This document shows, in pieces, positions 1,030 to 16,238 of a stretch of 40,432 bases of DNA; the stretch's first letter is position 1, and each line of letters starts with the position of its first letter. The stretch is from the NCBI GenBank assembly GCA_031763465.1, contig JARFOE010000001.1:1013558-1053989 (forward strand), given 5' to 3'. Made by a program: the position numbers and the translations under genes. Source of the DNA: Squatina squatina (taxonomy: Eukaryota). The notes beneath the pieces are model-generated. The model was not told the origin of the DNA. It saw only the letters and a list, made by a program, of their open reading frames with translations, and ran no database searches.

Positions 1030-1340
1030 GTGCCAGCTTGGCTCAGTTGATAGCACTCTCATCTCTGAGTCAGAATGTCATGTGTTCAAGCTCCACGTCA
1101 GGACTTAAGTGCATAATCAAGGCTGACATTTCAGTGTAGTACTGAGGGAGGGCTGGATTGTTGGAAATGCTGTCTTTCAAGTGGAACGTTGAACTGAGGC
1201 CCAGTCTGCCTTCTCAAATGGGAATAAAAGATCCCATGGAGCTATTAGAAGCGCAGGGAGCTCTCCCGATGATCTGGCCAACATTTACCCTTCGACCAAC
1301 ATCCTTGATTAAGCAGTCATTTATCTCATTGCTGTTTGTG
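1030..1340 (+). mobile_element. DeuSINE (SacSINE1/AmnSINE1-type), 3'-truncated
   Basis: tRNA-like head with A-box TGGCTCAGTTG and B-box TGTTCAAGCTC, then Deu-domain-like gctgtctttcaagtggaacgttgaactgaggccc...aaagatcccatgg...tctggccaacattt. Collinear with 38398-38849. Confidence 0.8.
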
Positions 1341-1344
1341 CCGA

Positions 1345-2353
1345 TCTGTCCTTGCCCATCTTTCCCACAATTCCATGTTTGAACCCCTCCAATCTGGTTT
1401 CAACCCCTACCACGGCACTGAAATGACCCTAATCAAAGTCAGAAATCACATCCTCTGTCACTGTGACCAAGGTACACTATCCCTCCTCATCCTTCTCAAC
1501 TTCTCTGCAGAAGTTGTCACGGTCAACCACACCATCCTCCTTCTCCTCTTTTTTGTCCAGCTCAATGGACCCACCCTCCGTGCAGTTAGCTCGAGTTCCC
1601 CAAGGATCGATTCTTGGGTCCTTCCTACTTCTCATTTGCATGTTGCCCCTCGCGGACATCATCCTAAGCTTCCACGTGCACGCTGACAAGACCCAGCTCT
1701 ACATCACTACCAAGCCTCTCGACCACTGCTGCCTTCGTTGTCAGATTGCTTGTCCGAAATCCAGTCCTAAACGAGCTGAAATTTCCTCCAATTAAACATT
1801 GGTGAGACCGAAGCCATTGTCTTCATTCCCTGCCGCAAACTGTGTTTCCTCACCACTGATTCTATTCCACTCCCTGGCCATTGTCTCAGGCTGAACCAGA
1901 CTGTTCACAACCTCTGCATCCTATTTGATTCTGAGCTGAGCTTCCTACCTTGTTTCCGCTCCATCGCAAAGACTGCCTATTTCCACCTCCGAAACATTGC
2001 CTGTCTCCGCCTGCCTCAGCTTACTGCTGCTGAAACCCTAATTCCTGCTTTTGTTACCTCTAGACTCCACTATCCCAATGCTCTCCCATTTTTAACCCTC
2101 CATGAATCTGAGCTAATCCAAAACCCTGCTGCCTGCACCAGGTTCTGCTCATCCATTACCCTTATGCTTATTGACCTACATTGGCTCCTGGTGCACCATT
2201 GCCTCGGTTAATTTTTCATCCTTGTGTTCAAATCCCTACATGGCTTCACCATTCCCTATCTCTGTAACCTCCTTCAGACCTAAAGTCCTCCAAGAACTCT
2301 TGGTCCCCGCCAACTCTGGCCTCTTGTGCATTACCACTTCCTTCGCCCAGCAT
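1345..2353 (+). mobile_element. L2-clade LINE ORF2 (reverse transcriptase) relic, frameshifted
   Basis: Peptides PLQSGFNPYHGTEMTLIKV...SLLILLNFSAEVVTVNHTILL and VPQGSILGSFLLLICMLPLADII..SFHVHADKTQLY are degenerate versions of the L2 RT motifs QSGFR.HSTETAL, LLDLSAAFDTVDH, GVPQGS.LGP and YADDTQLY. C/T-rich sense strand. Confidence 0.85.
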
Positions 2354-3323: not shown

Positions 3324-3984
3324 TGTAAGGATTGGCCTTTTATGGATTTTGTATTGTTAGTTGGAGAATTGTTAATATGCCATTTTGTTAGTGTTTATTG
3401 TTGTTGTTATTGTAACCAGTTAAATGAAACTGTTTGTTTGTGAATTTTGCTGTGCTGTATAAATGGCTGGGTGTGTACGGAACATTCCAGAAACTGAACT
3501 CGAACACCTGTGAAAGTAATAAAGCAGGAAACCACTTGTAAGGGATTCAAGTGTTCTACCCGGAGACAAGGAACAACCAATCAAAACGGTGCAACTGTTG
3601 AGCTGCCTGGAAAGTGCTGCAACCAAGGCTATTGCCAGTTGTCTTACCAAATAAGGCAATGGCGGGAAAACTATCGATTTATGTTTCAGGGTATAAAGGA
3701 CAGAAGAAGCCAGCCCAAGAGAGGGGAAGCCAGCCCAAGACAGAGGAGCCCAGCTCAGGACAGAGAAGGAAAGGAGGCAGGACAAGAGACTATGCCAGCA
3801 AGATTTGGGGAAACTGGAGCTGAGTTTGCTTTTACCTGTTGCCTTGATGAGTAGTGCTTTTGTTACATTATCTTAAATGTACTCAATAGAGGCTTTTGCT
3901 TTAATCTAAAGTGCAGAGTCTGTACCTTTGTAGGTCTCGTGTTAGGTCAAGAACCCACCGTGAGATTAGTAGAGAATTTTTACA
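3324..3984 (+). mobile_element. Candidate solo LTR
   Basis: Begins TGTAAGGATT and ends AATTTTTACA (8/10 inverted match, TG...CA). Internal CCAAT (~3577), TATAAA (~3692), then purine-rich repeats (gaagccagcccaaga x2). No target-site duplication found. Confidence 0.4.
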
Positions 3985-5488: not shown

Positions 5489-8024
5489 TGCCCGATTTAC
5501 ACATTGCCCGAATTACACAGTGCCCGATTTACCTATTGCCCGATTTACACAGTGCCCGATTTACACTATACCCGATTTACACATTGCTTGATTTACACAG
5601 TGCCCGATTTACACATTGCCTGATTTACACAGTGTCTGATTTACACATTGCCCGTTTTACACATTGCCCAATTTAAACAGTGCCCTATTTGCACCTTGCC
5701 CGATTTACACCTTGCCCGATTTACACAGTGCCCAATTTACACACCGCCCGTTTTACACAGTGCCTGATTTACACAGTGCCCGATTTACACTGTACCCGAT
5801 TTACCCAGTGCCCGATTTTCCCATTGCCTGATTTTCCCATTGCCTGATTTACCCATTGCCCAATTTAACAGTTCCTGATTTACACATTACCTGATTTACA
5901 CAGTGCCCGATTTACACATTGCCCGAATTACACAGTGCCCGATTTACCTATTGCCCGATTTACACAGTGCCCGATTTACATTGTACCCGATTTACACATT
6001 GCCTGATTTACACAGTGCCCGATTTACCCATTGCCCGATTTACACAGTGCCCGATTTACACAGTGCCCGATAATCACAGTGCCCGATTTACACATTGCCC
6101 GTTTTACACTGTGCTCGATTTACAAAGTGCCCGATTTACACACCGCCCGTTTTACACAGTGCCCGATTTACACAGTGCCTGATTTACACACCGCCCATTT
6201 TACACAGTGCCGGATTTGCACAGTGCCCGATTTACACATTGCCCGTTTTACACAATGCCCGATTTGCACAGTGCCCGATTTACACATCGCCTGTTTTACA
6301 CAGTGTCTGATTTACACAGTGCCTGATTTACACATTGCTATTTTGCACACTGCCCGATTTACACAGTGCCCGATTTTCACACTGCCTGTTTTACACAGTG
6401 TCTGTTTTACACAGTGCCTGATTTACACACCGCCCATTTTACACAGTGCCCGATTTACACAGTGCCCGATTTACAAATTGCCCAATTTGCACACCGCTCG
6501 TTTTACACAGTGCCCGATTTACACAGTGCCCGATTTACCCATTGCCCAATTTACACATTGCTCGATTTACAAAGTGCCTGATTTACCCTTGCCCGATTTA
6601 CACAGTGCCCGATTTGCACATTGTCCGATTTACGCAGTGCCCGATTTACACAGTACCCGATTTACCCATTACCCGATTTTCACAGTGCCCGATTTACCCA
6701 TTGCCGATTACACAATGCCCGATTTACCTATTGCCTGATTTACCCATTGCCCGATTTACACAGTGCCCGATTTACCCATTGCCTGATTTACACATTACCC
6801 GATTTACACAGTGCCCGATTAACACAGTGCCCGATTTACACACCGCCTGTTTTCCACAGTGTCTGATTTGCACAGTGCCTGATTTACACACCGCCCATTT
6901 TACACAGTGCCCGATTTACACAGTGCCCGATTTATAAATTGACCGATTTACACACCGCTCGTTTTACACAGTGCCCGATTTACACAGTGCCCGATTTACA
7001 AATTGCCCGATTTACAACTTGCCCGATTTACACAGTGCCCGATTTACACATTGCCCGTTTTACAAATTGCCCGGTTTACACACTGCCCGATTTACACAGT
7101 GCCCGATTTACACATTGCCTGTTTTACACAGTGCCCAATTTAAACAGTGCCCGATTTACACAGTGTCCGATTTACACATTGCCCGTTTTACACAGTGCCT
7201 GATTTACACAGTGCTTGATTTACACATTACCCGATTTGCACAGTGCCCGATTTACACATTGCTCGAATTACACAGTATCCATTTTACACAGTGCCCGATT
7301 TACACAGTGCCCGATTTACAAATTGCCCAATTTACACACCGCTCGTTTTACACAGTGCCCGATTTACACAGTGCCCGATTTACACCTTGCCCGATTTACA
7401 CTGTGCCCGATTTACACAGTGCCCATTTGACACCTTGCCCGATTTACACCTTGCCCGATTTACACAGTGCCTGTTTTACACAGTGCCCAATTTAAACAGT
7501 GCCCGATTTACACCTTGCCCGATTTACACAGTGCCCGACTTACACAGTGCCCAATTTACACACTGCCCGTTTTACACAGTGCCCGATTTACACAGTGCCT
7601 GATTTACACATTGCCCGATTTGGACAGTGCCTGAATTTGCACAGTGCCCGATTTACACAGTGGTCGATTTACACCTTTCCCGATTTACCCATTGCCCGAT
7701 TTACCCATTGCCCGATTTACACAGTGCCCAATTTTCACATTGCCCAATTTACACATTGCCCAATTTGCCCATTGCCCGATTTACACAGTGCCCGATTTAC
7801 CCATTGCCCGATTTACCCTTTGCCCAATTTACACAGTGCCTGATTTACACAATGCTCGATTTACAAAGTGCCTGATTTACCCTTGCCCGATTTACACAGT
7901 GCCCGATTTACACATTGTCCGATTTACGCAGTGCCCGATTTACACATTACCCGATTTACCCATTACCCGATTTTCACAGTGCCCGATTTACCCATTGCCG
8001 ATTACACAATGCCCGATTTACCTA
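5489..8024. repeat. Satellite array, 16-bp unit TGCCCGATTTACACA(G/T), about 158 units, open at both gap ends
   Basis: Direct reading. It explains all the CPIYTVPDLHSARFTQ-type ORFs (3 units = 48 bp = 16 aa). Confidence 0.97.
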
Positions 8025-8124: not shown

Positions 8125-8332
8125 TAATCCCAATCTAATCCAGGATATAAACTTCAATATAATCCATGATATCAACTCCAATAGAATTCAGGATATAAAC
8201 CCCAATATAATCCAGGATATAATCCCAATATAATCCAGGATATAAAACCCACTATAATCCAGGATATGAACCCCAATATAATCCATGATAACCTCAATAT
8301 AATCCAGGATATAACCCCAAAATAATACAGGA
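8125..8332. repeat. Minisatellite, ~24-bp unit ATAATCCAGGATATAAACCCCAAT, 8-9 copies
   Basis: Direct reading; starts at a gap edge. Confidence 0.92.
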
Positions 8333-9689
8333 TCGCCTATCTCACAGCTTGTAGATACTGCCATTTTTGAGGCCTTTGTTTCCTGAGAGTAAATGGCTTT
8401 AGGGATGTGCGGAGGACCTTTGACTTTAAATGAGATAAGCTTTCCAAAATTCATCCCCAATCTGAAGCTGAGCTTTGCTCTAAACTCGGTTTAGCTCCTT
8501 CTGATTGAATTTGGCCCAGGCTAATTCGTACCATTTGGGATGTCAATGCGTTGGGATTTGCTGCACATCCTTAATATGCTTATCTGGGCTTTAATGGCCA
8601 CCTGGGCTCAGCCATATGTGCTTTGGTGCAGCTCTTAGCAGCCAGATTAAGTATGAATTTTCACTCAAGACAACCGTTAAGATTTAGCACCCTTCTGTCT
8701 CCAGATGACACAGTCATGCCTCTTGCCTCTTCGTGGGGAACCTAGTGCTTCAGTCTTGCAGCAGCTGGTCTAAAGTGCAACTATAGGGTAGTTTTTTTCA
8801 TTATATACGAAAGTTAAGTTTTAAATTCATTCCGCAAAATTGAGCAAGGACCCGGGAGCAGGTTGCATTCCTATTGCCATTGGTTTTATAATGATATGTG
8901 ATACCCACAAGCCCAGGAGCAAGAAGANNNNNNNNNNNNNNNNNNNNNNNNNNNNNNNNNNNNNNNNNNNNNNNNNNNNNNNNNNNNNNNNNNNNNNNNN
9001 NNNNNNNNNNNNNNNNNNNNNNNNNNNTTAATCTTATTAAACACAATACGGTTGAGCCCGAAAAACGTGTGTCCGAGTCTGATCTGTCCATATAATCCCT
9101 ATCGCCCAGAACTTGTAGTAAGAGGTGCGTTTTCAGTACGCCCGAGAAAACCACTTACAATTTGCAGCATTCTCTATTTTTATTTCAGATTCCAGCATCC
9201 ACAGTATTTTGCTTTTGTATTAGTGTTAAAGCATGTTTGATTCTGTTGTGTAGCTACAATGCAGCTAACAAAGGCAGCAATAACCAGCACATTTGCACAA
9301 AGAATATTCGTAAATTGAAAAAAATGAATCTGCCGTTGATTTATTATTACTACACAATAAAATGCATTCAGGTTGAAAGTGTGTTGCAGGAGGATGAAAT
9401 TACAGGGAAGTTCAAAGACAGAATGAAATGGGTAACCTTCAATTAGCATTTACAGCTTCAGCTGCTCTGCACCCTGGCCTTTATTAACTAATACAAAGAT
9501 ACTAACAATAAGATCATTAAGATTCCATTTTATTTTTTTGATATCTGCTTACACTCCAACAATTCCTCTTCTCTAACTCCCTCTAGAAAACTTCTCTGTT
9601 ACTTCAAAACACACAATTATGCACACTGTTAATTATGCAGTACGTCAAAAATAAATGTCAAGCAGTTCCTCTATTGTAAATAATTCCTC

Positions 9690-13144: not shown

Positions 13145-14049
13145 NNNNNNNNNNNNNNNNNNNNNNNNNNNNNNNNNNNNNNNNNNNNNNNNNNNNNNNN
13201 NNNNNNNNNNNNNNNNNNNNNNNNNNNNNNNNNNNNNNNNNNNNGTGTCGGATTGTCTAATTTCCTTATTGATACCATACATTACCATGCACCCATCACT
13301 TTTTTTGAATCAGTATTTAAGGTGAATCCAAAAGTAGGTGCAGCAGCAGATCTACAGAAATAAATCTGGGGCTAGTCTTCTATATTTGATGGTTATCAGC
13401 ACATGGAATTTATGGCAAATGAATATGCTGAATGTTCATAGCCGGATAAATGATGAAAGGGCTGAAAGTCATTGAAGGGTAGAAAAGCATTCAAGGAGCT
13501 TAGCCCTCTGGGCTCTTCCTGCCATGAAATTTCCAATGATTGATGGGACAGTCAGCCCTCCTTAATGTTTAGAAATGAAAAGCAGGCTGCCCGAGTGTTT
13601 CTTTTTAAGACTTTGTTAAAGTTTAACTGCAGCTGACGTGCCTCACTCGCACTTCATGCGTAGCTCTCTGAAGGGGAGCCCTGCCTGTGACTGTTACCTC
13701 ACACCTGCGGAGCACCATTGCACATATTATACTGGAGCCCTATGGAAGGCTAGACCAGCCGGAAGGCAGACTTGGACTTTCACTAGAGGAAAGCGGCTTA
13801 CTCAGTGGATCAATGCAATTTTCTGCTTCTGCTGCTTCAAGCCCCTAAGCTTGTCCTGGGCCAGATATAGAGTATTCACAAGCAGATGAAACTCAAACCT
13901 GTCTAGTACGTCTGGCGTTTTAATGCCATCTGTCACTTCATCAATTCAAACAGTTTCTACCTAGGTAACGTTTCTGACAGCATTTTGCCCCACTTCAAAA
14001 GATGTTGCAAGGTTAGAATTTCTACCATTTCTTTGAAAGACATGACTTG

Positions 14050-14827
14050 TGAAATTCCTAGACCAAAATTTGCAGCTTGCCTGTATTCCACCAGACCAAT
14101 TTCCTCTTACTTGTGCCCCAGATTTTTTTTTCTTTCTCCACTTCACTACCCACCCATATCTGTGGCTCTTCTGATGCTTTGACGATTTCAATTGGGGCCC
14201 TCCAGCCCCAATTGTCTCCATTTTACCATGAACACCATGTCTGTATAGTCCCTCTACACCATCACCGTACAGTCCCTCTACACCATGGGCATACAGTCCC
14301 TCTACACCATCACCGTACAGTCCCTCTACACCATGGGCGCACGGTCCCTCTATACCATGGGTGCACGGGGTCTCTACACCATAGACACACATTCCCTCTA
14401 CTGCATGGGCATAGAATCTCTCTACAAGCTGGGACACATTCTTTCTAAACTTTGCCATAGATTCCCGCTACACACAGTACTTGTATATCTCCTTCCCTCA
14501 CCAGGATTGTCTCCGGGCCCTCACCCTTTCCTTCAACCGTAGTGCAAACAGACCCCGTTCATTGTCACCATCATCCTTTGCCACCGAGCTGAACATGCTC
14601 TCACCTTGATTAAGAAGAACCTCCCTTTCACTTCTTCCTGATAAAAGTTGTTGCCATGGGAACCTGCATGGATCTCTACTCTACCCGTCTGTTTGTGGCA
14701 AACTTTTTGTTCCAATTATACGTGGGCCTACCCCTGACCTCTTCATCTTTTACATCGATGACTGGGTTGGTTCTGATTCCAGCTCCTCTCTGATTTTGAG
14801 AATTTTGTTTGCCTCCTCATCCAATTT
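14050..14827 (+). mobile_element. Penelope-like element reverse-transcriptase relic
   Basis: Ordered, frameshifted peptides PRPKFAACLYSTRPISSYL, SLPTHICGSSDAL, FTMN..SLY, LYISFPHQDCLRAL, KVVAMGTCMDLYSTRLFV and FYIDDW match PLE RT motifs RPIVS.C.CPTE.IS.YLD, SLPTYI.D..DAL, FTMDV.SLYT.IPH, G.AMGT.MGP.YA.LF and RYIDD. Confidence 0.82.
14234..14425 (+). repeat. Minisatellite, 8 x 24-bp unit ACCATGGGCRTACAGTCCCTCTAC, inside the Penelope RT
   Basis: In-frame units read TMSV*SLY TITVQSLY TMGIQSLY TITVQSLY TMGARSLY TMGARGLY TIDTHSLY CMGIESLY. Confidence 0.93.
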
Positions 14828-16238
14828 NNNNNNNNNNNNNNNNNNNNNNNNNNNNNNNNNNNNNNNNNNNNNNNNNNNNNNNNNNNNNNNNNNNNNNNNN
14901 NNNNNNNNNNNNNNNNNNNNNNNNNNNGGAACTTGGAGGTGGTGGTGCTCCCATACATCTGCTGCCATAAATTTGATTCAAATACTCGCCTCTGCAGTTG
15001 AGGACAGAATATCCCCACTGAGGCCAATGCCTTTCCTGGCACGTTGTACGGTGTATATATATATTCTCAACTAGTAAAGCCCATGTCTATATTTGACAAC
15101 GGATGAGCTTACATATAGTATATAGTCCAGATGGGACAATTCTAAGCTTATTGTTGGACTAAAAAGATCTGGCAGCGGTTGTAATCATCCAATTGTATGT
15201 AGTGATACCAATGACTGTGTTGTGTGATGGTAAAATCCTGTCGGAAATGGCAGGCGCCACATTGTGAAGAAATTAGTCAGCAGGATCTCTTAGAGACCAA
15301 GCAGATCTGGACAAACACTGTCCTTTCATTGCACTCACATCCTCCTGTAAACAGTTTTAGTATGAACACCTTTGCAAAATTCACAAGCTGTCGCCACACA
15401 AACCGGCTGCGATTTAATTTTGTCTCTTATCAGGAGGTCCCTGGGCTCCACTGGGATGTAATAAGAAGTGGCTGCACTCCAAGGCATTTTTGGGGCGTGA
15501 GGTCTCGTGATCCGTTATATCCTGTTCATTTCTTTTAAGAGCATGCTCTGCTTTTTTTTTAAATACTGACAGGTTTATCTGCAGTGTCAAGCATGAACAG
15601 TGGGCTTTTGAGTGTCCGGTGAAGCAGTCATGTTCACAGTGACGCTCCCGACACAACAGAGTGAGCACAGACACAGACGCTGGCCTACCCACATGGTTCC
15701 TGCTCTCTCTAGCCACCATTGATTTCCCCATGAAGGGATATGGCAGGATGTGTTATTAAACAAGTATCAGCCTTCTAGTAATTATGTAACGCAACAATGG
15801 CAATATCAAGTTTGCCAGACAGTTGGGCGATAGGAGTTGTGACTTGGCCTTAAACTGAGGTTGATGTTTAACAAATTATACAACTACACTGTAGTTTTTT
15901 GTATCGGTTTTGGGTCTGGCAGTAGAGTAAATGGAGGGTTTATTCCAGTGCAATTTTTTTTTTAACCTCTCCATTCGGGACCCAGTGCTTGCCCAGAATG
16001 GAAAAGAGGATCTTTACACTTGGTTACAGTCTCTTTTTTGCAGCTTAATGCAATGGAGTTTCTCCAACACCAGTTACAGGGAAATACAACTGTTAAAAGT
16101 TTTGTCTGGGGATATACAGTAATAATGTGCAAATCCCANNNNNNNNNNNNNNNNNNNNNNNNNNNNNNNNNNNNNNNNNNNNNNNNNNNNNNNNNNNNNN
16201 NNNNNNNNNNNNNNNNNNNNNNNNNNNNNNNNNNNNNN

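Follow-up and report, generated by a model that had tools for sequence, protein, structure and literature searches.

A 24-bp minisatellite of probable microhomology-mediated origin within a dead Penelope-like element of Squatina squatina

Minisatellites that derive from transposable elements (TEs) have been reviewed (see the sections on the subject in PMC9659126 and PMC6947457), and for the human genome, the part of the study by Ahmed and Liang (2012, PMC3389668) that deals with their number gives 7,276 TE-derived minisatellites, corresponding to 23%, of which 300 are flanked by direct repeats of 5–20 bp. The same article cites the Alu-derived minisatellites of Jurka and Gentles, and the model of Haber and Louis, as it is cited in PMC6947457 and PMC3389668, places the birth of a minisatellite between flanking direct repeats of 5–10 bp. 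Microhomology-mediated tandem duplication is described as a widespread and mostly neutral process in the relevant part of PMC13167724. A repeat born from the reverse transcriptase (RT) motif of a Penelope element was not reported in the literature that we searched, in which subscription journals are thinly covered. Here, we describe such a candidate in a window of 40,432 nucleotides from Squatina squatina (contig JARFOE010000001.1 of assembly GCA_031763465.1, positions 1,013,558 to 1,053,989), to which all coordinates refer. We consider it highly probable that a 24-bp tandem array replaces the motif-A codons of a dead copy of an RT plus GIY-YIG element, that its birth was microhomology-mediated between two arms, and that growth followed later.

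The array and its extent

The array is hosted by a contig (13245-14827) that is bounded by gaps of 100 N, and it comprises, together with its host element, the following features:

14059-14224, + strand: decayed Penelope-like RT copy, 5' part (alignments to the family copies L039, L049, L050 and L012; tblastn)
14218-14227, + strand: site of the upstream homology arm, in which 7 of 10 letters still agree with family copies
14225-14233, + strand: unit stub of 9 bp, ACC ATG AAC (T-M-N codons), preceding unit 1
14234-14425, + strand: eight 24-bp units attributed to the T-M-D-V-Q-S-L-Y codons (TRF, letters, family comparison)
14247-14338, + strand: 48-bp higher-order duplication of young age, with 14247-14290 and 14295-14338 identical over 44 nt
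14426-14486, + strand: roughly three decayed units, of which two are almost complete and one has lost 9 bp (alignment model)
14487-14827, + strand: decayed RT copy, 3' part, with SFPHQD, AMGT (14653-14664) and YIDD (14751-14762)

An earlier sequence-only reading of this DNA had listed eight units of 24 bp, and our reading of the window letters reproduced them exactly at 14234-14425 on the forward strand, with the translations TMSV*SLY, TITVQSLY, TMGIQSLY, TITVQSLY, TMGARSLY, TMGARGLY, TIDTHSLY and CMGIESLY for units 1 to 8. The units are arranged head to tail, and their length lies inside the minisatellite range of 10–100 bp. TRF called periods of both 24 and 48 over the array; the identity at period 24 is 0.76, as compared to 0.42 for the best of 2000 shuffles (periods 10–49), and the units differ from one another at 4–10 of their 24 letters, with the exception of units 2 and 4. 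In other parts of the window, TRF found small tandem arrays at 3699-3765, 8129-8333 and 32669-32932, with periods of 20, 24 (71) and 39 (78), respectively, and a 16-bp satellite of about 159 copies at 5489-8021 that occupies a whole contig between gaps.

The units had been placed between FTMN and LYISFPHQD, and this location is correct, but LYISFPHQD does not abut unit 8: a spacer of about 49–60 bp lies in between and represents further decayed units. Compared with a tandem of the unit of one family copy, the spacer scored 29, a value reached by none of 1000 shuffles. We also aligned the window to a model consisting of a flank, n units and a flank of the family copy L038, and the score was highest at 11 units (263; 10 units, 257; 8 units, 212; 1 unit, −22). 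Modeled in this way, the array comprises about 11 units overall, or about 260 bp, and is decayed at its 3' end, where the units at 14426-14486 run back into the parent sequence and where the frame change sits.

The description of the units as in-frame holds only nominally, as unit 1 contains a TAG, LYISFPHQD is off the frame of the units, and AMGT and YIDD lie in two further frames. The first catalytic Asp is retained in one of the eight units, and the window copy carries several frameshifts on both sides of the array; because of this loss, the stop and the frameshifts, the array appears to be without any sign of function. Stop-free frames that could code for a repetitive peptide do cross it, with 128 aa on the forward (14062-14448) and 168 aa on the reverse strand (13961-14467), the former His-rich and the latter Gly/Val-rich. 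However, a repeat whose unit length is a multiple of three will produce such frames by itself, the TAG interrupts the RT frame, and indels have accumulated in the decayed 3' units, which makes it exceedingly unlikely that the repeat is kept for an expressed peptide or as a regulatory repeat. Most likely, the array is neutral, non-coding DNA.

An assembly artefact, comprising either the whole array or only the young 48-bp doubling, would be conceivable, given that the assembly consists of short contigs and that the window contains 25 gaps of 100 N each. Independent coverage comes from one other run, of which only the contig X1, a single contig with a depth of 2.7, covers the 3' half of the array (14336-14486), leaving units 1–4 uncovered. 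X1 is nevertheless identical at 149 of 151 positions, and these 2 differences correspond to the level in other unique pieces (three pieces; 2–3 differences in 151–172). Furthermore, units that diverge from one another to the degree given above, units 2 and 4 excepted, are beyond what an assembler would invent, and we regard an artefact as very unlikely.

The parent family and the source of the unit

The assignment of the relic to a Penelope-like RT has been corroborated, as the flanks of the array align to genomic copies of a family with RT and GIY-YIG domains. Both flanks are collinear with these copies, the left one from 14059 and the right one up to the contig end. The 5' part opens at an RPIVS-like motif about 165 nt ahead of the motif-A codons; local alignments of the window to L039, L049 and L050 begin at 14059 with scores of 72–82 (shuffle maxima, 34–39), and in the alignments to family copies, nothing upstream of this position aligned to the element. 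The identity to the family copy L012 is 76% with 8 gaps for the 5' part and 71% with 10 gaps for the 3' part, which is frameshifted and ended by the assembly gap at 14828, and the tblastn comparison of the window with L047 gave an E of 4.6e-5. In the flank comparison, the K2P distance of the window copy to nine family copies is 0.33, as compared to 0.13 among those copies, and its closest DNA relative in the genome DNA search is only 73% identical. By these comparisons, the window copy is to be regarded as an old, truncated relic. Another trace of an RT may be present at 1309-2211 (+ strand) of the window, where overlapping stop-free frames contain the RT-like words PQGSILG and ADKTQLY, and we take these frames to resemble a broken LINE RT.

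The genome search with the window DNA, which passes over common words, gave 56 matches, mostly to the 3' flank, with 65–73% identity over longer stretches. Translations of the family read LLFTMDVQSLYTSIPHQDG ... KGVAMGT ... YIDD. Stop-free frames of family copies were used for the Pfam scans, as every frame of the window relic contains stops. Of five family fragments scanned, three had no RVT_1 match, whereas the fragment L047 matched RVT_1 with an E of 3.8e-5 (23.9 bits at a curated cut-off of 29.6), and L039 matched with an E of 0.013, also below the curated cut-off. The motif, YIDD and GIY-YIG are found on one contig in L012, with an E of 1.5e-4 and 22.5 bits at a cut-off of 22.6 for a GIY-YIG domain that is cut by the contig end, and GIY-YIG is also visible in the translations of L005, L014 and L060. 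The domain is known from these family copies, and the window copy stops at the gap before any GIY-YIG could appear. We take FTMDV.SLYT.IPH to be motif A of the RT of Penelope-like elements, and T-M-D-V-Q-S-L-Y to bear the first catalytic Asp. The position of the RVT_1 match is consistent with these labels, and among the PDB sequences, L047 had no match below an E of 0.75. In the window and five loci, no Rfam entry, the hammerhead included, reached its gathering score; pLTRs possibly lie outside these sequences.

As to the type of element, a CX4CxxC linker is present ahead of the endonuclease in L005; among the four copies read, the whole motif was found in one and its CxxC half in three. The part of PMC8557442 on the clades describes a CX2-5CxxC linker between RT and endonuclease as a feature of Neptune and Nematis that Penelope/Poseidon elements lack. 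Because of this clade feature and the linker in L005, the parent is probably a Penelope-like element of Neptune type rather than a strict Penelope/Poseidon element. A genome search for the family with PF01541 was a dead end, as it gave only another Penelope-like family. This second family (L073, 2799 bp on the reverse strand, and L074) is A-rich, has a GIY-YIG domain and a long RT frame with few stops, and showed no DNA match to the parent family of the array.

The origin of the unit from the T-M-D-V-Q-S-L-Y stretch, as had been proposed, is in agreement with our comparisons: seven of the eight units match the motif position of L012, a family copy of 1322 nt, above any other site on both strands. 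Between 14 and 19 of the 24 letters are shared with the L012 motif. The expectation that the units are nearer to the motif DNA than shuffled sequence held for six of them, whose match values were reached by 0–1 of 60 shuffles, whereas unit 8 is weak (equalled by 4 of 60) and unit 6 is at chance level (14/24, equalled in 32 of 60). The majority unit agrees with 34 family copies at an average of 19.8 of 24 letters, these copies having been chosen by patterns that include the motif. In its single-copy form, the motif had 129 exact-pattern matches in the genome, with 0 for the control. The unit is in register with the single-copy parent segment, and both array junctions are in register as well.

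Two satellites of the genome resemble the unit. A 26-bp satellite constitutes the whole contigs L008, L016 and L017 with 48–77 copies each and has a 12-nt core in common with the unit, and a separate 24-bp satellite with the same, C-rich core constitutes the whole contigs L032, L033, L064 and L065; in both families, the contigs are array end to end, without flanks. A derivation of these satellites from the element was not supported, as they are no closer to it than shuffles outside the shared core (p 0.08–0.87). It is unlikely that the motif-A codons are a recurrent seed, with the 24-bp and 26-bp satellites stemming from earlier births, our locus representing the first stage, and RT motifs being general seeds. 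The reverse direction has to be considered as well: DNA of one of the satellites could have been copied, entirely or partially, into the dead element at the shared core by break repair or gene conversion, and could afterwards have mixed with the motif. Both families carry a 9–12-nt core of the unit and provide the sole other matches to the array. Outside the core, unit 5 resembles the 24-bp family with p=0.025 and unit 2 the 26-bp family with p=0.036, both uncorrected; the spacer scores 33 against the 24-bp satellite and 29 against the element, and units 2 and 4 fit the 26-bp satellite as well as the element (maximum 15 versus 14). However, the two p values come from a series of 19 tests, for which the families had been picked for similarity, and unit 3 matches the element outside the core with p=0.0006 in an ungapped comparison. 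Moreover, six of the eight rotated units are best against the element or tied within one point, and the period equals the arm spacing of the element, with the junctions in register at both ends. Satellite input is therefore improbable, and we favor the motif-A codons of the host copy as the source of the unit.

Homology arms, reciprocal loss and growth

The family copies contain two arms at a spacing of 24 bp, in which 9 of 10 offsets (−7 to +2) agree in 62–100% of 32–34 copies. The arm sequence is CCTCT-x-CACY, with one internal mismatch. Microhomology had been suspected in the ACC codons on both sides of the motif; microhomology is indeed present at the motif, but the actual arm is longer, with 9/10 nt. 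In the window copy, the upstream arm has decayed, and its ancestral arms are presumably represented by those of a younger family. The array was likely born by tandem duplication between these two near-identical 10-bp arms. Misalignment at such arms predicts both the gain and the loss of the unit.

Both outcomes could be followed in 100 family copies that hold both anchors around the motif, of which 89 have the normal length, 10 have deletions of at least 3 bp, and one has an N gap. In two of the 100 copies, L066 and L067, exactly the 24-bp unit is deleted with the breakpoint inside the arm, and these two account for two of the five deletions over 3 bp, as compared to 6/645 per deletion at uniform placement. 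L066 and L067 are identical at all but 3 of their 63 shared letters; their deletions may descend from one event, and the chance would then be about 0.05. L068 and L069 were discarded, as they are not clean 24-bp deletions. None of the 100 anchored copies has a duplication or insertion (0 gains).

The duplication could also date back to a source element, whose descendants would then share it as a subfamily, or the array could be the outpost of a dispersed satellite, and the fragmented assembly (1.15 million contigs), the exact patterns, which miss diverged copies, and the disregard of common words in the DNA search leave some room for this. However, the patterns of the duplication junction match nowhere in the genome but in this array, the anchored copies lack insertions, and the period-24 pattern search finds only the window array and the unrelated-looking 24-bp satellite of L032, L033, L064 and L065. 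Both scenarios are thus highly improbable, and the genome search for the tandem 24-mer, which the sequence-only reading had suggested, ended with a locus-specific junction and without any wide array that lacks Penelope flanks. Some candidates of the junction search were rejected: L070 has no motif duplication, and L080-L082 are chance matches that are not element copies.

The array had been interpreted as the birth of a repeat from an RT active site. The motif-A codons stand as the source of the unit, but by our tests, the catalytic codons are not special. That the arm pair is unique in the element was rejected, as it scores 7 in L039 and is one of six pairs with this score in 608 nt. Its score is lower in the piece of L038 (6) and in both L012 and L047 (5), so that in some copies the pair ranks high among the direct repeats without being the best. 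Deletions of 24 bp occur elsewhere in the element in L022 and L062, with homologies of 3 and 0 nt. By these tests, the motif-A codons are not uniquely prone, and the active-site origin is a coincidence at the DNA level; with its C-rich codon usage, the element offers many similar seeds. Small tandem duplications were also noticed elsewhere in the element (L057:206-229, L059:70-100, L060:1296-1319 and L070), which are units of 7–9 bp repeated about three times and, in one case, a 19-bp insertion that duplicates its neighboring letters.

A later 48-bp duplication had been suggested as well, and this step is clearly visible, as the longest exact run is 44 nt at period 48 versus 19 nt at period 24. 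Because a 44-nt exact match has a chance of about 3e-6 at 25% divergence, and would be that improbable had the repeat diverged like the flanks, the last doubling is dated by this estimate to long after the death of the host copy. As to a subtelomeric position, no telomere hexamers occurred within 6 kb of the two ends of the scaffold, where a large part of the sequence is N.

We infer the following order of events. A 5'-truncated copy would have inserted and then decayed, after which misalignment at the arms would have caused the first 24-bp duplication. Further slippage or unequal exchange would have led to about 11 units, the 3' units would have decayed, and late, a two-unit block would have doubled at the 5' end. 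As to the molecular route, the sequence alone would fit replication slippage, unequal crossover or an Okazaki-flap route alike. The parent family, the register of the junctions, the arms in the copies, the reciprocal 24-bp deletion in two of them, and the younger 48-bp step are direct observations.

Comparison with known systems

In conclusion, the array is an example of a known process, the microhomology-seeded formation of a TE-derived minisatellite, at a new locus. It does not change any model, and its weight would rise if the large 24-bp and 26-bp satellites came from the same motif, a derivation for which our tests give no support. Its value is that of a tidy, teaching-grade minisatellite birth in which the parent, the arms, the reciprocal loss and the late higher-order step are all readable, and which is easy to trace because sister copies carry the matching 24-base loss. 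It also illustrates that a retrotransposon with numerous copies offers natural replicates, in which gains and losses at a single pair of microhomologies can be measured.

With the Neptune/Nematis elements, which are Penelope-like elements with endonuclease (EN+) as described in the pertinent part of PMC8557442, the parent family shares the order of RT and C-terminal GIY-YIG, the CCHH-type residues, and, in L005, the CX4CxxC linker. Unlike intact elements of this type, the copy in the window is a relic, both truncated and frameshifted, and its family has been assigned by domains and linker rather than by an RT tree. As in the TE-derived minisatellites that PMC3389668 describes in its relevant sections, an internal piece of a dead element is repeated at one locus, head to tail, in register, and in association with short direct repeats; what differs from these is the Penelope-like parent, the piece from the first catalytic motif of an RT, and the reciprocal deletion in sister copies. 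Our locus also agrees with the Haber and Louis model, in the form in which it is cited, in that a single-copy segment between arms of 5–10 bp is gained or lost and then expands, in a mostly neutral manner. In contrast to that model, the arm has one mismatch here, and paralogues serve as replicates, with two losses and 0 gains in 100 copies, and one expanded array.
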